A stretch of 64,000 nt of DNA from Candidatus Poribacteria bacterium (lineage in GTDB: Bacteria > Poribacteria > WGA-4E > WGA-3G), in NCBI GenBank assembly GCA_965197475.1, contig CBDANF010000002.1:1-64000 (forward strand), in the 5' to 3' direction. Below are positions 32,436-42,105 of the stretch, one piece after another (within the stretch, counting starts at the first letter, position 1; the number at the start of each line of letters is the position of its first letter). The position numbers and the translations under genes were made by a program. The notes beneath the pieces were generated by a model. The model was not told where the DNA came from. It was given only the letters and a program-made list of their open reading frames with translations, and did no database searches.

Positions 32436-33341
32436 TTAATGATGTGTTTGCCAATGTGTTAAATCTTGTCTCAATAATTCTGCTAACTGTTCATTATAAG
32501 GTTTAAAATACTGGACTAATTCCTGGCCCGTCTGTGGGTTCAGGGGCGGAGGCGTAAAAGTTTTTTCGTTTAAGTCCAAAATAGCTTTTCTCAATTTGTA
32601 AGCAGTCGCATCTGGAACAAACTTCCGAATTGCACGTCTCAATGGATTACGGGAGGCAAGAAATTGCGTAAACAGAAAGCCCAATTTTTCGGATCGTGGC
32701 ATTGCAGCCTGATTGTGATGTTCGCCTACTACTGGCTCAAAATCTAAATGGACACCTATTAGTTTGAAAATTTGTTGACAAACGGCATTGGCATCGGTTT
32801 TCAATTCATCTGTCAAAACACAGTGTACTTGATCTGCCCCGAACTGTGTAATCATATTTTTCACTAATGGATAATAGGTGCTGTTGAATCGATATGCACA
32901 TTGCCGCCATTTAAACCAATTTTCATTTAGGCGTGTTTCCTCAACTTCAAGTGCATCTTCAAAAGTTTTAATATTTTCCCATCCTCTGCGGCGGGCCCAC
33001 CAATACGCAGAATACGCACGCGAAACAGGCTCTCGTAAAAGGACAATAAGGTGGATTTCAGGGTTGTGTTCATATATCCGTTGCATAATTTCTTGTGAAC
33101 ACATTACCATCACATTTTTCGCAATGATGTGCATATTTTCTGGACATTTTGAGAAATATTTTGCGAACGCCCATTCGTAGCCACGCACATATTCATGGTC
33201 TTGAAGGAAAAAAGTCATCTCTGGTTGCGGATGTGTGTAGATTTCAGGATGCTGTGCCAAGTAGCGCAACAACGAAGAAGTACCTGACTTCTGTGAACCT
33301 ACAATCATCAGTTGAATGTTTTTAGATTGATCCTTTTTCAT
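32436..33341 (-). CDS. Sulfotransferase (Sulfotransfer_1, heparan-sulfate sulfotransferase-like)
   Basis: IVGSQKSGTSSL..YL.QHP; LREPVSRAYSAY. Confidence 0.9.
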   Translation of the reverse strand: MKKDQSKNIQLMIVGSQKSGTSSLLRYLAQHPEIYTHPQPEMTFFLQDHEYVRGYEWAFAKYFSKCPENMHIIAKNVMVMCSQEIMQRIYEHNPEIHLIVLLREPVSRAYSAYWWARRRGWENIKTFEDALEVEETRLNENWFKWRQCAYRFNSTYYPLVKNMITQFGADQVHCVLTDELKTDANAVCQQIFKLIGVHLDFEPVVGEHHNQAAMPRSEKLGFLFTQFLASRNPLRRAIRKFVPDATAYKLRKAILDLNEKTFTPPPLNPQTGQELVQYFKPYNEQLAELLRQDLTHWQTHH

Positions 33342-34342
33342 CAGGTTAGTCTACCTATAAAAGGTTGCCATGGTGGTTGTTTGCCAATCAATTTTCTGAG
33401 ATCATCTACATCGTGCTCATAGAACGTAACTAACCGATTTTGCGTTTTTTCAGAAACGGTGACGCTTTCATCAGGACGGGTGTTCAAACGGAGATAGAGT
33501 GGTTCAATTGCTCGCCTCATTACACGCAAAGATCTATGAATTATAGGTTTGTTATGTGTCCACCGACGTACCTGGAATCTAAACGCTCTATATTTCTGAT
33601 GAAACTCTGAATTTCTCATCGTCTCGGTGCGATTGGTAACCTTAAATGTATAATCCTCATAAAAATCAGGTTCTATATCAGCAAAACGGCATAAATCATT
33701 CAAAACTTTTAATGGGTTTTCGGCAAGGTCTTCATAAAAAAGCGTGTAGATGCGGTCTTTACCAAAACGTTCAAGATAGTTTTTCAGATAGCTTGCGTAA
33801 CATCCCTGTTGGAGCGTTTGCATGTACTGTTGACGGTCTATGTTTTCCTCGGAATTCACATCATCCTGAGATGTTTGTTCTACGGACGGTTTTGCCGACA
33901 CAACATTGAAAAGTTCTTCAACATAACCATCAAAACTGAGACTTTTCGGCAATCTTCCTATCTGTCTTGCGAAGCGATACCACGAAATTAATCGAGAAAT
34001 CGGTTCACGTAGACTAAAAATCAACTTGGCATGTGGCAGAAACTTAGCAATTCTCTCAAGCGCAGATGCACAATACAAGTAGTCTGGTGTTGACTCAAGT
34101 CTAAATTGATTTTCATCACATTCTGAAAACAGCAAATTGTATTCTTCAACATCACCTTTGAATCGGAATTTTGAAGGCAGTGGATAATCAGTGTCAAGAA
34201 AGAAACGGGTTTCTTTATAGGATGCGGCACAAACTGATGGATGGTCGGCAAGATAGGCGAACAAAGATGTTGTCGCAGCTTTTGTTGTCCCTCCGACAAT
34301 CAGATATTGGTAGTCACTGACCATTTTTGTTGAAGTTTGCAT
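33341..34342 (-). CDS. Sulfotransferase (Sulfotransfer_1, heparan-sulfate sulfotransferase-like)
   Basis: IVGGTTKAATTSL..YLADHP; KETRFF; ESTPDY; LREPISRLISWY. Confidence 0.9.
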   Translation of the reverse strand: MQTSTKMVSDYQYLIVGGTTKAATTSLFAYLADHPSVCAASYKETRFFLDTDYPLPSKFRFKGDVEEYNLLFSECDENQFRLESTPDYLYCASALERIAKFLPHAKLIFSLREPISRLISWYRFARQIGRLPKSLSFDGYVEELFNVVSAKPSVEQTSQDDVNSEENIDRQQYMQTLQQGCYASYLKNYLERFGKDRIYTLFYEDLAENPLKVLNDLCRFADIEPDFYEDYTFKVTNRTETMRNSEFHQKYRAFRFQVRRWTHNKPIIHRSLRVMRRAIEPLYLRLNTRPDESVTVSEKTQNRLVTFYEHDVDDLRKLIGKQPPWQPFIGRLT

Positions 34343-34416
34343 ATTCCATCAAAATCTAAACGACAAATAATTCCTTAAAGCATTTCAAAATATCTACTTT
34401 TCCAAAAAACAAATCT

Positions 34417-35784
34417 TCAACCTTTCGAATATAGAGAAACACCCGTTTTTCTAAGCAGAAAGACTAAATTCGCCACAGCAAGAACTGCAGTAACCACAAT
34501 AGCAATCGCAATTCCTGTTAGTTCCCATACCGTCACAAGTCCGTACGCCACAATGAAGTTTAAAACCGCCATTGTGACCATGTTTCTAAAAATGAGTCCA
34601 TACGTTTTCTGAGCATAGAGTCCAGCATTTAGCACGGGAATCAAGCAAGAAAATACTGTACCAATGCTTAAACAGAAAAGGATTTGACCAATCTGTTGAA
34701 CAGATCGGTCAGCAAGTTCACCTCTTCCATAAAGGATATGCGCTATTTTTGTTGAACCCAATAGAAGTAAAAACGTAATTGGGACTGCGATGTATAATAC
34801 AGTTCGCAAGTTGCGTAATAGTGTCTGTCTCAACTTTTGTTTATTCTCTTCAGTGTTATCTGCTGCCATATCAGGCAATCCTGTTGTGGCAATGCTTATC
34901 CCAATAAGCGTCTGTATCGCAGAAAAAATTCGGAAGGCACTATTGTAGAGTGTAATTGCGCCTTTGCCGAGTTTTCCCACTAAAAACACTTCAACAAACA
35001 AACGAGCAGTTATCTGTCGGATTGCGAAACCGAGTGTCGGCAGTGGAATTGTCTCTTTCAATGAACGCAGTGCATCAAAAGATATCCACGAAAAACGGTA
35101 GCCATATCCCGCCCTATGCATCCCGACGTACAACCACCCAAAATATACCACAAATCCGGATGCGTAGGCTATAGCGACGCAATGTGCAAGGTTTTCTGCA
35201 TCTGATAGAAGCAGGAAGACCAAGGTTGCGATCCCGGATGGAAGCGCGTTTCGGAAGGCAACTGTTTTGAAACGCCGCTGACTATTTAGAAACGCCCCCA
35301 ATATTGTGCTACCACTACCGAAGATAACTAATGGCGCACACAATCGCAATAAGGTTGCCATCTCTACTCTTGCTACCACCGAACTACTTGACAACAAAAC
35401 GTTCGCGATCCATGTTGCGAATACCTCTATTAGCAGCATCAAAACCACGCCCGCACAGAGCATAAAATTTAAGATGCCACTTGTAAAATATTGAAAATCG
35501 GTTCTGCTTTTCGATTTCTCTTCATTTATAAAAAGCGGAACAAGACTAAATTTAGCACCTTCTCGGAGTACAGTATCAACTAATAGAACAACCTTTAATG
35601 CAGCAATTAAAGCGTCCGCTGTTTCACTTACCTCAAGATATCTGGGAATTAAGACATGGAATAAGAGACTCAACCCCATTCCTATAAAGGTAATTAGCAT
35701 TACCCAGCGAGTTGGAGAATGTCTCAACTTTTCTACTAATCTACCTATCTTTTGGAACGAGTTATGCTCTCGAATTCGCTTCAA
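34417..35784 (-). CDS. MurJ/MviN-like MOP flippase
   Basis: About 12 hydrophobic helices; EGA..SLVPLF, LNSQRRF, ISIATTGLP. Confidence 0.82.
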   Translation of the reverse strand: MKRIREHNSFQKIGRLVEKLRHSPTRWVMLITFIGMGLSLLFHVLIPRYLEVSETADALIAALKVVLLVDTVLREGAKFSLVPLFINEEKSKSRTDFQYFTSGILNFMLCAGVVLMLLIEVFATWIANVLLSSSSVVARVEMATLLRLCAPLVIFGSGSTILGAFLNSQRRFKTVAFRNALPSGIATLVFLLLSDAENLAHCVAIAYASGFVVYFGWLYVGMHRAGYGYRFSWISFDALRSLKETIPLPTLGFAIRQITARLFVEVFLVGKLGKGAITLYNSAFRIFSAIQTLIGISIATTGLPDMAADNTEENKQKLRQTLLRNLRTVLYIAVPITFLLLLGSTKIAHILYGRGELADRSVQQIGQILFCLSIGTVFSCLIPVLNAGLYAQKTYGLIFRNMVTMAVLNFIVAYGLVTVWELTGIAIAIVVTAVLAVANLVFLLRKTGVSLYSKG

Positions 35785-35914
35785 GTTCTAATTGTCTCTC
35801 AAATGCACTATACTGAAAACCAGATTTTTGACTTGTCGGTTCGCCGAATTGTTCATTTTTTGTGATTAGCAGGAGTTAGAAATCCAGTTGTTACGAATTT
35901 GCAATATGCTAGCA

Positions 35915-36316
35915 TTATCCGTTGAGAATCTTCTGGACAATGTCTGTGGTATGGATATAATCCGTATACACCGTTTGAACAGGTATCTCTAATCCCAGTT
36001 CTTCAAGAATCTCGCGGAGTCTTGCATTGCCATCAGCACCTTCAACACAAATATCGGGTGATACCTGAGCAACTAAATCCAGTTGCGACTCCAAAGAAAA
36101 GATTTCCACAGTATCCACATATCGACATGCTTTTATCAGTGCAATACGTTGTTCAAGGGGATAAATAGGTCTATTTTCACCTTTGACGCGTCGGACTGTA
36201 TCATCCTCAGCAACACCGACCACGAGCCGATCACCACATGCAGCCGCTGCCTCGAAGAATTTCAGATGTCCATAATGAAATAGATCGAAACAACCCGTAA
36301 CCAAAACAGTTTTCAC
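35915..36316 (-). CDS. Cytidylyl/adenylyltransferase family (TagD / RfaE domain II-like)
   Basis: GCFDLFHYGH (HxGH), KGENRPI, TTDI. Confidence 0.88.
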   Translation of the reverse strand: MKTVLVTGCFDLFHYGHLKFFEAAAACGDRLVVGVAEDDTVRRVKGENRPIYPLEQRIALIKACRYVDTVEIFSLESQLDLVAQVSPDICVEGADGNARLREILEELGLEIPVQTVYTDYIHTTDIVQKILNG

Positions 36317-37326
36317 GTTTGAAGCTCCAATGCTCTAAAAGCATATTTGGCTGTTTGCCGATGTTGGTAAACCTCTGCCTCTGGTGGAGAATTGAAGTGG
36401 AACGGACTGTCTAGTTTATCTAGTTTAGGAGCCAGTTTTTCACCGTATCCACCGATAACGTATATCTCTGATTTTTCGGGAACCTGCATCAACTCATATA
36501 GGGAAATGATGTAATTCATTTCAGAAATAGTAATTGGATTGGAAACTTTTTTGACGACCTGTTTGTGAAAACTACCGTTTGCTGTAATCGTCCAACGTAT
36601 TCCTTCCAATTTCTCATCTTGTCTCGGTAAGAATGAAATTTCCGGCTGACTGATCACCACCCATGTTCCTGCAATGATGATTGGTTTGGGATTAAACACA
36701 GAGATACAACTATGATCATGCCCGCCAGCAAAGACTGCAACACCGTTTTCAGTGTTCCCAACGATTGTTGCTGCACTCATGAATTCAGATGAAAACGGAA
36801 AGGGTTCACACTGATATTTTTGGAGTAGTTCGACTGCCCAACGTCGCTGAGAAAAGTTTAACATACCGCTATTGCCAGCGTGTGTCAAATCCCAAGTATT
36901 TATTTTAGCATTTGCAAGCCGAGATGCGATATAGGTTGAAACAGGTAATGCTGGTCCGTCAGAATAGGAAGGAAACGTTAGAAGCGATTGAAATGCTGAA
37001 CCGATATCCCGTTTGACATCCGTTGGCGTGCCTGTCTGCTCATAATAATCCTCAGATAAAGGCACACGATTATGGGTAGGTTCATAAATAATATTGTTAT
37101 AAACAACACCTTCTCCGAAACTAAGCGGAAAGATTGCTTGATACGTGTAATTGTCAAACTTAGACAAAACCTCTCTAACACATGCCTCAAGCGTCCTTGG
37201 TGATGTAATATCGGTCACCAATTTATAATCAGCGATGATGTCTAACGTATTGTTGAACAGATAGCCTTTCGTATATGAACAACCTATGTCAAGAACCAGG
37301 ATTTGCATTGCAATACCTCTGCACAA
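36313..37326 (-). CDS. Divergent, shortened FGGY-family carbohydrate kinase
   Basis: LDIGCSYTK, SFGEG, THAGNSG, GGHDH, AGTW, IGG; 337 aa versus the usual ~480. Confidence 0.65.
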   Translation of the reverse strand: MCRGIAMQILVLDIGCSYTKGYLFNNTLDIIADYKLVTDITSPRTLEACVREVLSKFDNYTYQAIFPLSFGEGVVYNNIIYEPTHNRVPLSEDYYEQTGTPTDVKRDIGSAFQSLLTFPSYSDGPALPVSTYIASRLANAKINTWDLTHAGNSGMLNFSQRRWAVELLQKYQCEPFPFSSEFMSAATIVGNTENGVAVFAGGHDHSCISVFNPKPIIIAGTWVVISQPEISFLPRQDEKLEGIRWTITANGSFHKQVVKKVSNPITISEMNYIISLYELMQVPEKSEIYVIGGYGEKLAPKLDKLDSPFHFNSPPEAEVYQHRQTAKYAFRALELQT

Positions 37327-37529
37327 AACTAAAATCTCTTGTAATCACCTTATGTTAACTTACTATTCCTATGATAAAACAGGTATTATCGCGTCTAATG
37401 TATAGTAGTAAATTTACTTCTATTATTTATAGTTTGTATCAAATGACCCCATGAGTTATACTATTAGTATTCGTTAAACTAACGGGTAGATGTCCTCGGA
37501 TCCCCGATAATCTATTCATGGAGGTCAAT

Positions 37530-38327
37530 ATGAACCGCAAGAAGGATACCGCCTACGGTATCAATCGACTGGAATCCAAGAATGCCAGAGCCGCGATTAT
37601 TCAGAAGATTTCAGCAGACTTTAATCTAATGCCTCTCGTTGCTGAAGCCTACTATAAACAGATTTCTACCTACTTTGAACAACACGCCGATGTGCAACTC
37701 ACATCAGGGCAAATCTGCTACGAGGCAGTCGCCGCTGAGGAACCCGCAGGCAAACACATCGCTTTAGCGAAAAAAATCTCCTGTCGACTCAAACTCAACG
37801 ATGTTGAAGCCGACCTTGAAGTTTTAGCGACTTATGGGCTCGCAGGTCTCAGACAGCATCGGATCCTCCGATTGACCCAAGAAGCTTATGACCAAGAAGC
37901 CTTGCTGAGTTATGAGGATTTGGCGGTGTTATTAACTACCAGTCCTGCCACCGTCAAACGCGACATCCGAGCGTTGAAGCAGTCCGGCTATTTCGTGATG
38001 ACGCGCGGGGCGAAACACGACATGGGCCCGGGACTGTCTCATAAGACGCAGATTCTTGAGTTGTCCTTCAAAGCATACACCTTCACCGAGATTGAGCAAA
38101 AGACGAACCACTCCGAACGGGCCGTCTACCGCTACTTGAGGGACTTAACACAAGTCGCCACGCTCCATCATCAAGGTTTTCCTAACGCACAGATACGGCT
38201 CATCACTCATCTCTCTGACCGGCTGATCCGCGAGTATCTCTCGCTGTCCGAGGAATACCAACACACCGATCGCATGACCCAACTCCTTCACCCAGAGCCC
38301 GTGGAGAAAAAAAAGGAGGAACTCTGA
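37530..38327 (+). CDS. DUF1670-like protein A (multiple HTH-like segments)
   Basis: RLTQEAYDQEALLSYEDLAVLL.TS..TVKRDI; TRG..HDMGPG.SHK; HS..AV.RY; GGAGG RBS. Confidence 0.8.
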   Translation: MNRKKDTAYGINRLESKNARAAIIQKISADFNLMPLVAEAYYKQISTYFEQHADVQLTSGQICYEAVAAEEPAGKHIALAKKISCRLKLNDVEADLEVLATYGLAGLRQHRILRLTQEAYDQEALLSYEDLAVLLTTSPATVKRDIRALKQSGYFVMTRGAKHDMGPGLSHKTQILELSFKAYTFTEIEQKTNHSERAVYRYLRDLTQVATLHHQGFPNAQIRLITHLSDRLIREYLSLSEEYQHTDRMTQLLHPEPVEKKKEEL

Positions 38328-39211
38328 TGAGCAAACCTTTGACGCGCACGCAAATCAACGAGAAAAAGTTCAGACGCATCAACGATAAATCGCTACGACA
38401 GTTGCTGATCCACCGCTTTCTCAATGACTATGGTTATGACAAAGGCGAAGTCACTGCCACCGCCATTGTTGATGATATTCTTAAGACCGTTGAAGACTAT
38501 TTCGTGATTACCCTTCCTTTGGAGAAACTCGCCACCGGCGATCAACTCCCGGATGAGCGTTTCTTGAGTTATGGACAACTCGTTTGGATGGCCGTCCCTA
38601 TTGAAGAGCATCCAGAAAGAGGAAAGTCCATCGTCAAAACCCGCATGAAACCCATCATCCTGACTTACCTCGCCGCAGAGGATATTGAATCCTTTCGCAA
38701 CGGTTTCACCTCCCGGCAATTGCGGATCAATCGCTTGGTCCGCTGGTGTCATCAAGCTTATGACCAAGGGGCATTATTGACACAACTCGACTTGGCAGTT
38801 TTGCTCAATGTCTGCGATGCCGTTGTCTGTGATTATGTTAATGAATGGCAAAAAACCACTGGAGAACTCTTGCCCACCCGTGGCAATATCCATGACTTAT
38901 CGGGGGCTATTACCCATAAGAAAGAGATCATAACCCTCTATCTTCAAGGACATCTCACCCCCAGGATTGCCGCAAAGACCAAACACTCTAAGGAGGCAGT
39001 TGACCGATACATTCGCGATTATGAGAGCGTCAAAGTCGTTCGGAAAGCAACCGCAGATATTGATAAAATCTCACAGATTACACGACTTTCTAAACGCGTC
39101 ATCTCTCAATATCTCGACCTCATACCGCAGCACCAACTCCAAGCCATAGATGCAGACCTTGCCAATTCAGACTCAAACGATGAAGCCACTCACCAAGGAG
39201 AAGCCCAATGA
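38327..39211 (+). CDS. DUF1670-like protein B
   Basis: QAYDQGALLTQLDLAVLL; PTRGNIHDLSGAITHK; HSKEAVDRY; overlaps the stop of gene A. Confidence 0.8.
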   Translation: MSKPLTRTQINEKKFRRINDKSLRQLLIHRFLNDYGYDKGEVTATAIVDDILKTVEDYFVITLPLEKLATGDQLPDERFLSYGQLVWMAVPIEEHPERGKSIVKTRMKPIILTYLAAEDIESFRNGFTSRQLRINRLVRWCHQAYDQGALLTQLDLAVLLNVCDAVVCDYVNEWQKTTGELLPTRGNIHDLSGAITHKKEIITLYLQGHLTPRIAAKTKHSKEAVDRYIRDYESVKVVRKATADIDKISQITRLSKRVISQYLDLIPQHQLQAIDADLANSDSNDEATHQGEAQ

Positions 39212-39278
39212 GACCCTAATCCTATGTTCCCGACGAACTTTACTTCGCAAAACCGGGGCAGGTGCCTTGAAAATATGG

Positions 39279-39307
39279 TTGACAACCGCTACTGGTTTTG
39301 CTATACT
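39279..39307 (+). promoter_or_regulatory. Near-consensus sigma70 promoter inside the right end of the DUF1670 element, pointing outward
   Basis: TTGACA, 17 bp, TATACT. Confidence 0.7.
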
Positions 39308-39438
39308 TTAGACACGTTTATCGCTAAACGCATCATTTCTCAAAGAGGATGCTCGCGATCCCAACGCAACCCACTCATTAATGATCGCTGGGAAGCCAAT
39401 AAACATCAACCTTCCAGATATCCTATGGTCATTTGATA

Positions 39439-42105
39439 CTATTTAATGATGACTAATTTTCTCGTCTGTTTAGATGTTGGCGTGGACAATTCGTAAAAGT
39501 ATAGACCACTTGCGGCAGCTTCCCCAAATTCGTTAGAGCCATCCCAATATGCGGCTTTCCCACGACTGATATAAAACCCTGACGTTTGATGTCCAATGAA
39601 GAGTGTCCGCACAGTCTCACCTGCAGTGTTATATACACGTATGGTAATTTCTGCATCCTCAGCGAGTTGATAAGGAATCCATGTCTCCGGATTAAACGGG
39701 TTAGGATAGTTTGCGAAAAGTTTCGTTTTCAGAGGACCACCAGCAGGCATCAACAGATTCTCTAAAAAACGTTTCACTATTGATATTTGTGTAGCATCAT
39801 CAGACAATTCTTCAATTTTTTCGTAAAATGCATGGAGAAGTGCAATGTAATGATCTGAAAGGGAGTAGATATCGGTGGCTTTAATTTTGGGAATGGGTGT
39901 TTGAGGTGGTGCTGCAGTGCCATTCTGGTTTTCTTCAATACTCTTAATTACCAAAATGACATCTTGAAGATCCACTTTTCCATCTTTATTTGTATCATAC
40001 TTCGAATTTGAAGGGGGGCTTTCTCCAAAATGAGCGACAATTACAAGTAGATCAATAATATCAACTTGTCCATCTAAATTAACATCACCCGTGAGTAACG
40101 TTTGAATTCCATCTTCAACTACACGTAACACTTGGTTCACCTCAACATCCTTTAACTTTTGAACAATACCGCTTGGCCAATTGATAATCAATTCATTGAC
40201 CACCTCATTCTGTCCAAGCCCAAAATGGATACGTTTCTGGTCTTGCTGAGACCAGTGGATCCCTCCGTTACGTTCGCGAAGCTGAGTTTTGCCATCAGGT
40301 GTTGTTGCGAACAATCTCGCACCGATTCCATCTCTATTTGAAACTTTCCCTTCTAAATCTATCTGAAGCCAATTGTTTCCACTCCCTACGTTGCGATAGA
40401 GTTGGTCGGGTCCATTGTTATATGGGTAGACACCTCTACCATTGGTTACAAATAGGTCAAGGTAACCATCTAAGTCGTAGTCCCCCATTGTAACGCTCAT
40501 TCCTCTTCCTTCCGTGTTTGCTTCTGCACCGCCTGCTCCAGCAACTTGAATGAAAGAACCATCACCTTGGTTTTCATACAATTGGTTAGGGAGATTTACA
40601 GCACTATTTGAACGTACTATATAGAGGTCAATATCCATATCGTTGTCGAAATCTCCTGCTGCAACGGAACGTGCCTCAACTGCCTCAGTAAAAGGAATTT
40701 TCTGGAAATAGTTTGGTGGAGTCGTAATACAAAGAACAGAATTTGGTTGGTAAACGAGATCAGAGTAAGAAAAGTTTATAGGTTCTACCTCTACTATTGG
40801 GTTTTTTGATGATATGAGTGCCTCAAACCCTGTCCAAGTTGTGTTAGAAGAAGGCATTGTGTGGTATAACACAGTCCACTGAGTTGAATCTGGGTCATAT
40901 CCTACATAAGTTCGCCATTTCTCGTTTTTTGGACGAGCAGCCAACCCGACAACCCTTGGATCAGTTGGGTCAAGTACAAATGTGAAGGACGAAACATTCC
41001 GCTCCCGATTTGTTTGGATGTATTCTCCATCAAAAGCATTTACATTATGTGCTTCTTTTCCGATTGCTAAGTGGAGAAATTGAGATGCCCAATCGGAATG
41101 AACTTCAAATTTGACTTTTCCATCTGTCTTAAAACTAAAACCTTTCTCACCGACGTTAATTATAACGTGTACCTTTATCCTATAAGGATTAGTTTCAGTC
41201 TCTTGTAAATCGCCTGTGTTTTGTATATTCTCTGCTTCGGAAGTGTCAATGAAGGAGCGATAAACACCACATGCTAGAAACGCATCTGGGAGCAGATCCC
41301 CATTGAAATCGGCAAACGTAGCATCCTGTACATTATAAATATTAGGAAAATTAAGTGTTTCTGTTATTTCATTAAAGGGTGAAATAGATGTATCATATAC
41401 GCGTTCAGGATATGAACTTTTACCTATAAAGAGTTCCATATTTCCATCGTTGGTGACATCAGCAAGTTGTGCTAACGCAGCACCTTTTTCAATATGAAAA
41501 AACAATTGTTCATTTACAATCTCAAATCCTCCGTTAGTTTGTGCAAATATTGATGGGGTTACGGGGGTACCTGTTTTGTCATTTTGACTTATCCCAGTGA
41601 TAAGGAGATCCAGTTGTCCATCACCGTTCCAATCAAACCATAGAGGTGATCTTCCTCGAAGAAGCGGCATGTCAATACCAAATGCAGATGCACGCTCAAT
41701 TAGTTTACCATTTTCATTGACATAAAAATGATTAAAATGTGTTATGTTTGAACGGTTAACTCCGCCACCTCCCCCACACAAGACAATCAAATCTTGGTCA
41801 CCGTCATTATCAAAATCTGCCCATGCAACGCCATGTGTGTCCGCAAACGGAAATGCATTCCATACCTCGTCAATAATATCCGTAAATGTACCATCCTGAT
41901 TGTTACGATAGAGACTTGGTTTGTGTTTATGGTTCGTTGCCCATAAATCCAGATATCCATCTCCATCAAAATCCCCCCATGCGTTTCCCCAACTTTCACC
42001 GATGCGCGTGATTCCTGCTTGATGTGAAACATCTTCAAATTGAATTTCACTCCACGCAGTAGGGAGCAGCCAAAAAACAAACAACGACAAAATTAAAATT
42101 CGCAT
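39439..42105 (-). CDS. Secreted FG-GAP / ASPIC-UnbV (CRTAC1-like) protein with dockerin-like and FlgD-Ig module
   Basis: Repeated WGDFDGDGYLDL / DFDNDGDQDL; SNRDGIGA; HFGLG; WPSG; NYPNPFNPETWIPY. Confidence 0.9.
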   Translation of the reverse strand: MRILILSLFVFWLLPTAWSEIQFEDVSHQAGITRIGESWGNAWGDFDGDGYLDLWATNHKHKPSLYRNNQDGTFTDIIDEVWNAFPFADTHGVAWADFDNDGDQDLIVLCGGGGGVNRSNITHFNHFYVNENGKLIERASAFGIDMPLLRGRSPLWFDWNGDGQLDLLITGISQNDKTGTPVTPSIFAQTNGGFEIVNEQLFFHIEKGAALAQLADVTNDGNMELFIGKSSYPERVYDTSISPFNEITETLNFPNIYNVQDATFADFNGDLLPDAFLACGVYRSFIDTSEAENIQNTGDLQETETNPYRIKVHVIINVGEKGFSFKTDGKVKFEVHSDWASQFLHLAIGKEAHNVNAFDGEYIQTNRERNVSSFTFVLDPTDPRVVGLAARPKNEKWRTYVGYDPDSTQWTVLYHTMPSSNTTWTGFEALISSKNPIVEVEPINFSYSDLVYQPNSVLCITTPPNYFQKIPFTEAVEARSVAAGDFDNDMDIDLYIVRSNSAVNLPNQLYENQGDGSFIQVAGAGGAEANTEGRGMSVTMGDYDLDGYLDLFVTNGRGVYPYNNGPDQLYRNVGSGNNWLQIDLEGKVSNRDGIGARLFATTPDGKTQLRERNGGIHWSQQDQKRIHFGLGQNEVVNELIINWPSGIVQKLKDVEVNQVLRVVEDGIQTLLTGDVNLDGQVDIIDLLVIVAHFGESPPSNSKYDTNKDGKVDLQDVILVIKSIEENQNGTAAPPQTPIPKIKATDIYSLSDHYIALLHAFYEKIEELSDDATQISIVKRFLENLLMPAGGPLKTKLFANYPNPFNPETWIPYQLAEDAEITIRVYNTAGETVRTLFIGHQTSGFYISRGKAAYWDGSNEFGEAAASGLYFYELSTPTSKQTRKLVIIK

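Follow-up and report, generated by a model that had tools for sequence, protein, structure and literature searches.

What moves an insertion sequence (IS) that carries no recognisable transposase gene and whose only genes are two paralogous members of the DUF1670 family? The question is raised by a 2014 bp element at 37429-39442, on the forward strand of the window analysed here, a stretch of 64,000 nucleotides (positions 1 to 64,000 of contig CBDANF010000002.1, assembly GCA_965197475.1). The host is a Candidatus Poribacteria bacterium, a sponge symbiont with a genome of 5.70 Mb in three contigs, referred to below as G000. An earlier note, made from the letters of the window, had described a candidate compact mobile element with the gene pair as its possible transposase. 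Mobility and the two-gene architecture are borne out: the element is a multicopy insertion sequence with sharp limits, and this is strongly supported by its copies. That the pair is itself the (heteromeric) transposase is the part of the proposal that we still infer. On balance we lean towards the view that the element is autonomous, has been active recently and belongs to an undescribed family of insertion sequences, with the DUF1670 pair as a new transposase.

The evidence for mobility comes in the first place from other copies in the same genome, which the earlier note had suggested looking for and of which about 20 were found. The 22 BLAST pieces in G000 represent 18 full-length copies (92-100% identity) with common limits, one internally deleted copy and one short derivative. 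Groups of four, three and two copies show zero differences over their whole length, and all lie at different loci. The internally deleted copy (G000:C3:434730-436501) lacks element bases 68-299, so that the ORF1 start is gone, and has an intact ORF2. In the short derivative (G000:C3:94120-94551, 432/442 bp) bases 1-286 are joined to bases 1854-2004. Together with a 367 bp sequence at another locus (L126:1137-1503) it resembles a miniature inverted-repeat transposable element, without genes and with both ends kept. Both gene-less derivatives sit at the ends of sorting-domain genes, the same kind of target as that of the complete element, and the ends therefore suffice in cis. All paired inverted-repeat matches in G000 belong to the 20 copies, seven further matches to the core of the repeat are solitary, and no paired repeats of any other size were found in this genome. 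Several loci with identical limits, terminal inverted repeats and empty sites in relatives, three generic marks of an insertion sequence, are present.

The two open reading frames (ORFs) have been maintained in the copies. ORF1 has 269-270 amino acids in 14 of the 18 full copies, and ORF2 has 294 in 17; in the eighteenth (G000:C3:685919-687923) an extra G at a run of adenines near the end of ORF1 fuses the two in frame to an ORF of 564 amino acids. Variable sites at first, second and third codon positions number 19, 20 and 82 in ORF1 and 13, 7 and 75 in ORF2. Because they concentrate at third positions, the copies show the pattern of purifying selection on both ORFs. Two pairs of copies in G000 share one flank and not the other: C2:1160548 and C3:845190 have about 2150 bp of left flank in common at about 95% identity, and C2:1472043 and C3:49950 have 85 bp of right flank in common. 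Recombination among copies, a segmental duplication or a mixture of strains (assembly contamination is 6.97%) may explain this. G000:C3:845190 is also one of the two copies that lie away from sorting-domain genes.

The limits of the element differ from those first proposed. A perfect 13 bp inverted repeat at 37436-37448 and 39427-39439 is present as the earlier note described it, and from this repeat the ends had been read as TCAAATGACC...GGTCATTTGA with TA on both sides. These ends cannot be upheld, since the ten bases that precede the left repeat accompany it in all 20 copies, which share YTTATAGTTT on that side and TATTT to the right. The left-flank bases belong to the element because none of the 36 free target genes in G000 (described below) is followed by them; three bases further out differ among zero-difference copies (TAT, CAC, TAC, TAT). 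The true limits are 37429-39442, the element reads 5'-ATAG...CTAT-3', and the flanks are TT and not TA, on the left at 37427-37428 and on the right at 39443-39444. The inverted repeats reach the tips of the element. The left repeat (37429-37448, forward strand) is ATAG-TTTG-TATCAAATGACC, and the right repeat (39427-39442, forward strand), written as GGTCATTTGATA-CTAT, is ATAG-TATCAAATGACC when read from its own terminus. The ends are asymmetric, the left having four more bases than the right between terminus and core. As had been noted, the GC content inside the element (0.48-0.52) is above that of the flanks (0.37-0.42), and its ORFs lie on the forward strand among host genes on the reverse strand.

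The empty site predicted from TA flanks has no occurrence in the genome. Relatives do have empty sites, at another sequence than the predicted one. At the orthologous locus of the relative G035, where the gene is 96% identical, the intergenic DNA runs directly into TATTT... (...AAA TAA), and the orthologous loci in the relatives G031 and G017 are likewise empty. Contigs of the public runs X1 and X5 bridge from 37326 to 39440 with 95 unlike letters between, again an empty site with diverged intergenic DNA; as these may be of the same lineage as G035, they were not counted as independent. Clean empty sites were also sought for two further copies and none was obtained, the counterparts in G035 and G045 being 76-84% identical with left flanks that could not be aligned.

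The copies and empty sites together place the insertion point within the last codon of a host gene. In the window this gene (39439-42105, reverse strand) encodes 888 amino acids with FG-GAP repeats, a dockerin and a type IX secretion system (T9SS) type A sorting domain, to which model TIGR04183 assigns 36.7 bits (cut-off 23). The right end of the element had been described as abutting the stop codon of this gene. It does adjoin the gene, but the element itself supplies the stop codon (39439-39441) together with base 3 of the last Lys codon (39442), and the right flanking TT provides bases 1-2 of that codon. The insertion point thus falls between the second and third bases of the codon (AA^R), and insertion is in one orientation. 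The element brings its own 'A TAG', and the host reading frame is therefore restored and the host protein unchanged, while the original R and stop are displaced to the far, left junction (37424-37426 plus the preceding base, read on the reverse strand).

The same arrangement recurs throughout the genome. The right flank of 18 of the 20 copies, in reverse complement, is the end of a gene (...TRKMLILK), and TIGR04183 confirms the gene at 16 of the 20. A profile of the gene tail finds 54 sorting-domain genes in G000, 18 of them occupied and 36 free (TIGR04183 has 51 matches in the whole genome). Roughly every third gene with a T9SS type A sorting domain bears the element at its stop codon. Occupied genes end in AAA-TAG in 18 of 18 cases, and among the 36 free genes the last Lys codon is AAG in 19 and AAA in 14. 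Among 74 distinct elements from G000, other Poribacteria and other phyla, the six nucleotides at the left junction, in reverse complement, are Lys plus stop in 61 (AAGTAA 23, AAATAG 12, AAATAA 11, AAGTAG 9, AAGTGA 5, AAATGA 1), and TT stands on both sides in 72. From 86 insertions the target was reconstructed as TTcac.gc.AC.CG.AA.ATG.T.AT..tgAA^gTAa, with about 29 bits, nearly all of them on the gene side. With TT also part of this preferred target, the sequences would be identical after a duplication, after a blunt insertion or after an exchange at a shared crossover core. A likeness between the target flank and the right repeat (AGnATCAA) was set aside, just three of its positions being invariant at occupied sites. 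In another genus, at L009 (G022:C1) and similar loci, some copies lie in the loop of a hairpin with a 13 bp stem (gaaaccgagtttt ... aaaactcggtttc) and not at a gene end; possibly the hairpin is a repeated one and serves as a second target. Among the 74 elements, right-flank tails ...RNRVLKK recur four times and the left hexamer AAAAAA five times.

The two genes inside the element were described from the start as coupled, paralogous and DUF1670-like, and this description holds. ORF1 (37518-38327, forward strand) encodes 269 amino acids and matches PF07900, the DUF1670 family, with 199.4 bits; ORF2 (38327-39211, forward strand) encodes 294 amino acids, matches it with 207.7 bits (the Pfam cut-off is 25), and has a start that overlaps the ORF1 stop. 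The real ORF1 start is likely the ATG at 37530, downstream of GGAGG. The proteins are 35% identical (E 8e-26). In each, about 110 N-terminal residues precede three helix-turn-helix (HTH)-like stretches, one like HTH_11 or DeoR (HTH_11 at amino acids 125-162 of ORF1) and others like HTH_23, HTH_28 and HTH_29. Both contain the motifs TRGxxHD...HK and HSxxAVxRY, whose conservation had been pointed out before and whose key residues prove to be invariant or nearly so in 14 ORF1-type and 14 ORF2-type sequences. Among the residues of this kind in both paralogues are K21, E94, G99-K100, R133, R139, D155, R185, G186, D190, S/T196, H197, K198, H220, R227, Y228 and Y262, with R227 conserved in 13 of 14 ORF1-type and 14 of 14 ORF2-type sequences. 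The sources name proteins of this family "DUF1670 domain-containing protein", "hypothetical protein" or "biotin operon repressor".

The pair and its repeats are found together far beyond this genome. Of the genomes sampled, 29 of 101 in the phylum and 10 of 30 in the same genus have PF07900, mostly in several copies, and the element ends are unchanged in other genera of the phylum. A family scan limited to one genome per species yielded 80 loci; we examined 20 that were not labelled Poribacteria, many of them on contigs of 1.4-2.5 kb. In all 20 an ORF1-type gene is followed in tandem by an ORF2-type gene. The archaeal sources are Methanoperedens, ANME-2 and Methanomicrobiales, and the bacterial ones Gemmatimonadota, Melioribacteraceae, Ignavibacteriaceae, Cloacimonadota, Neomarinimicrobiota, Fibrobacteraceae, Chloroflexota and others. 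Where the contig includes both ends, each has the core CA[A/T]ATGACC, and nothing but the pair lies inside. The expectation that tandem pairs share terminal inverted repeats and TA cores is thus borne out for the pair and, where both ends are seen, for the repeats, but the flanks are TT. The earlier note had also named three observations that would tell against its proposal, namely pairs without inverted repeats, a DDE transposase travelling with the pair and the lack of any empty site; none of these was made, and no DDE or other transposase gene accompanies the pair.

In other bacterial phyla the right junction reads ...GA[T/C]ACTAT followed, across the junction, by TT, and eight of eight bacterial elements outside Poribacteria adjoin the end of a TIGR04183 gene (25-51 bits). 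The archaeal elements, of about 1.67 kb, retain the TT flanks and the longer left end and lie away from ORF ends; the gene-end address is therefore limited to the bacterial branch. A phylogenetic tree separates the ORF1-type from the ORF2-type proteins, in two clades with support 1.0; archaea and bacteria are represented in each, and ORF1 of the window falls in the ORF1 clade. The duplication is therefore an ancient one, and the two paralogues have been retained. The family comprises 1016 clusters at E<=0.001 among 50%-identity representatives, from bacteria and archaea. Natural ORF1-ORF2 fusions of 520-560 amino acids occur elsewhere. Fusion to another domain was sought among longer proteins and none was found, all five matches being ORF1-ORF2 fusions, and two proteins of about 930 amino acids (P0133 and P0135) have three DUF1670 modules per chain, the first without TRG..HD...HK. 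Searches of plasmid and phage collections with tblastn and of viral contigs with a pattern scan found nothing.

These comparisons bear on the possibility that the element is non-autonomous, its two genes being passengers or regulators and an unrelated transposase elsewhere moving it. No recognisable transposase lies inside the element, and G000 is rich in other insertion sequences, with 29 rve-type matches. G000 has no larger element bearing the same repeats, however; the pair and the repeats are the sole conserved content across phyla, purifying selection acts on both genes in every copy lineage, and the genome has no IS110-type match. IS3-type ends are TG...CA, unlike ATAG...CTAT. We regard a non-autonomous element as very unlikely. 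Most of the 29 rve (IS3-type) matches are ORFs of 289 amino acids, which points to at least one other expanded insertion sequence in this genome.

If the pair does act as the transposase, ORF1-type and ORF2-type proteins would work jointly, possibly also as a frameshift fusion. Their three or four HTH modules may bind the CA[A/T]ATGACC repeats, and the pair would recognise a motif of about 20-30 bp encoded by the last codons of the sorting domain. A reading of this gene-end motif on one side of the insertion point would account for the fixed orientation. The DNA would then be cut and joined with a 2-nucleotide stagger at TT, either by a transposase that makes a 2 bp duplication or by a conservative recombinase acting on an excised circle, the junction of which (CTAT-TT-ATAG) would have its TT core in common with the target. 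Duplication and conservative exchange would explain the invariant TT on both sides equally well. The unequal spacing of the ends would fit a heteromer with one paralogue per end. Judging by conservation, R185, D190, S/T196, H197, K198, H220 and Y228, together with R227, are candidate catalytic residues, as are E94 and K100 in the N-terminal part. More tentatively, at somewhat less than an even chance, we propose that the pair is a further class of enzyme for DNA transposition or site-specific recombination, not related to any of the DDE, DEDD, HUH, serine and tyrosine types. As a heteromer of two ancient paralogues it would read T9SS sorting-signal DNA and repair the gene on a landing in the final codon that is precise to the single base.

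Several observations weigh against the pair being an enzyme at all, or against its being this one. The absence of DDE, HUH and classical serine or tyrosine recombinase motifs, which the earlier note had remarked on, is supported by Pfam, where at E<=1 only HTH families match ORF1 or ORF2 besides PF07900. NCBIfam has no model for either protein, PHROGs and PADLOC give HTH-type matches at most, and in sequence profile searches of the PDB the remaining matches are HTH proteins or have E>0.3 (best non-HTH match E 0.7). H220, R227 and Y228 stand, in our reading of the HTH_23, HTH_28 and HTH_29 matches, at the places of core or DNA-contact residues in ordinary HTH motifs, and DUF1670 proteins may therefore merely bind DNA. 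Direct comparison by hhalign with five enzyme classes gave probabilities of 0.2-0.4% for tyrosine recombinases (30 sequences; no PF00589 domain), 0.2-0.5% for serine recombinases (24 sequences; no PF00239 domain), at most 1.0% for DDE enzymes represented by an rve alignment (20 sequences; no Pfam match at E<=1), at most 0.3% for IS110-type DEDD enzymes (19 sequences; no Pfam match) and 0.1% for HUH Y1 enzymes (18 sequences; no Pfam match); the target alignments, built from genomes of the phylum, were small and without secondary structure, so that a remote fold relation could escape. Outside Poribacteria the copy number is low, with 1-2 pairs in five genomes. A junction of right end to left end, as in a circle or tandem, was not found in G000, at any locus or in the metagenome contigs of the Joint Genome Institute (JGI), although assemblies rarely keep circle junctions and its absence is therefore no evidence against a circle. 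One match to such a junction (L128:6303-6350) proved to be a false positive, an unrelated GC-rich perfect palindrome holding both 13 bp arms. Apart from these, the PDB sequence search gave a designed HTH-repeat protein as its sole match (E 0.0012), and the ESM Atlas gave small HTH clusters alone, with scores of at most 0.80.

The same searches bear on whether the pair belongs to a known class and has diverged so far that sequence methods miss it, as might be the case for a compact tyrosine recombinase or for a PD-(D/E)xK-like nuclease with D190...T-H-K at its centre. The invariant constellation R...D...(S/T)HK...H...RY would suit such an origin, as would a weak, non-significant match of the N-terminal part to an integrase N-terminal domain (2khq, E 0.7). 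Yet hhalign gave at most 1% against all five classes when its positive control, ORF1 against ORF2, gave 100%, and Pfam and the PDB contributed no sequence match, so that we consider a diverged known enzyme improbable.

A pair that binds DNA could instead leave the chemistry to the host, recognising ends and target and building the synapse for an enzyme such as a topoisomerase or the resident tyrosine recombinase of Xer type. The use of XerCD by integrative elements offers a comparison. HTH-type similarity is all that could be found in the two proteins, a circle junction would consist of a short spacer between two inverted arms, the dinucleotide at the flanks is always TT, as conservative exchange predicts, and G000 has one PF00589 gene. 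Against this, the same repeats and proteins occur across bacterial phyla and archaea, whose recombinases and sites differ, and the target is not dif-like. R185, D190, H197, K198 and E94 are moreover invariant in both paralogues in every lineage, which goes beyond the usual needs of DNA reading. The recombinase content of G000, beyond that one tyrosine recombinase, is zero IS110-type matches and zero serine recombinase matches (E<=1e-12), the last also counting against a host enzyme. On this evidence host chemistry seems to us unlikely, though it is the alternative that we take most seriously, and we continue to favour the DUF1670 pair as the transposase.

How such an element compares with known systems can be set out feature by feature. 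Members of IS630 and the Tc1-mariner group are small and have terminal inverted repeats, a 2 bp flanking repeat (TA) and an HTH part that binds the ends, with a basic linker and a DDE/D domain. The element shares the small size, the inverted repeats and the 2 bp flank; its proteins likewise have HTH motifs, with matches to HTH_23, HTH_28 and HTH_29, and PTRG in the DUF1670 proteins may be compared to the basic linker. It differs in having no DDE/D domain, two paralogous genes, a specific orientation and a target of about 29 bits; the TA target duplication is absent, the flanks being TT. In the IS3 and IS1 families two consecutive overlapping ORFs yield a fusion protein by means of a slippery heptamer. 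The overlapping ORFs here have an in-phase heptamer, A_AAA_AAG (38309-38315, forward strand), just before the ORF1 stop, which leads into the downstream frame and is present in all 19 copies that retain the region. A -1 slip at this place would fuse ORF1 to ORF2. The two ORFs are paralogous to each other, in contrast to those families, and neither has an rve domain. ORF2 is in the +1 frame in about half of the other lineages, and frameshifting therefore cannot be general; the rule across lineages is coupling through an overlapping start behind GGAGG or GGGGG.

Tn7, by way of TnsD, inserts at attTn7 downstream of glmS, using a conserved coding 3' end as its address and leaving the product intact. 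The logic is the same here, with a coding 3' end as address and an unharmed host product. The element, however, has no TnsA/B/C/D-like genes, just two proteins of 270-290 amino acids; it enters the last codon and not the DNA downstream, and its address is a domain found in about 50 genes per genome and not one gene. Some integrases enter the 3' ends of tRNA or protein genes and carry a replacement 3' end. Like these, the element restores the gene end, has a short identical core (TT) at both junctions and inserts in a fixed orientation; unlike them, it has no tyrosine or serine recombinase gene, is the size of an insertion sequence and is present in about 20 copies. An IS200/IS605-like single-strand mechanism was rejected, there being no HUH domain and no stable end hairpins (fold z -0.3 to +0.6), and inverted repeats being present.

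For IS110/IS1111, one source describes a DEDD transposase with a seeker or bridge RNA and a strict choice of target, often in repeated sequences (doi 10.1101/2024.04.26.591405). The element resembles these in its strict target-site selection without a classical DDE enzyme, and differs in having terminal inverted repeats and no DEDD domain. Its right non-coding part (39212-39426, forward strand, about 230 nucleotides) gave no match in Rfam, and in other phyla this part is only 50-140 nucleotides long. There is no conserved long non-coding region (50-230 nucleotides over all), and a guide RNA in the right part is unlikely.

We regard the element as a new family within the insertion sequences, with a substantial chance that its enzyme is categorically new. 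Should the pair prove to be the transposase, this would be the first function for DUF1670, and the family would be one whose enzyme fits no known transposase class. To home to the last codon of a secretion-signal domain that some 50 genes per genome have in common, and to restore the reading frame there, amounts to a safe-harbour strategy that does not appear in the literature searched. That literature, with ISfinder and paper supplements outside the search, contains no mention of DUF1670 or PF07900, and searches in it for such an element found nothing. A compact two-protein system with an address of about 29 bits and a fixed orientation is also of interest as a tool for DNA insertion.

Some further features of the element concern its expression. 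A sigma-70-like promoter is predicted at 39279-39307 on the forward strand (TTGACA-17-TATACT with TG, 11 of 12 matches), its TATACT being retained in 20 of 20 copies and its TTGACA in the 19 copies that still have the region. It leaves through the right end, antisense to the host gene, and if the element were circular it would drive ORF1. A possible promoter for ORF1, TTGTAT-17 nt-TATACT at 37434-37462 (forward strand), was read by eye; its first hexamer overlaps the left repeat, and since this matches in just three of six positions the site is absent from the list of the promoter scan. The right non-coding part also contains a 70 amino acid ORF3 (39224-39436), which is probably not a gene because its variable sites are spread evenly over codon positions (5/6/8). 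Contigs of the RNA-library run X2 are deeper over the element than over its flanks; DNA carry-over is possible, and the contigs are uninformative on transcription. As for the surroundings, the genes to the left (33341-37326, reverse strand) encode a sulfotransferase, a MurJ or polysaccharide flippase, a cytidylyltransferase and an FGGY-like kinase, and appear to form a surface-polysaccharide cluster. On the right side are genes for two proteins with T9SS tags, of which one has FG-GAP repeats and a dockerin and the other leucine-rich repeats.

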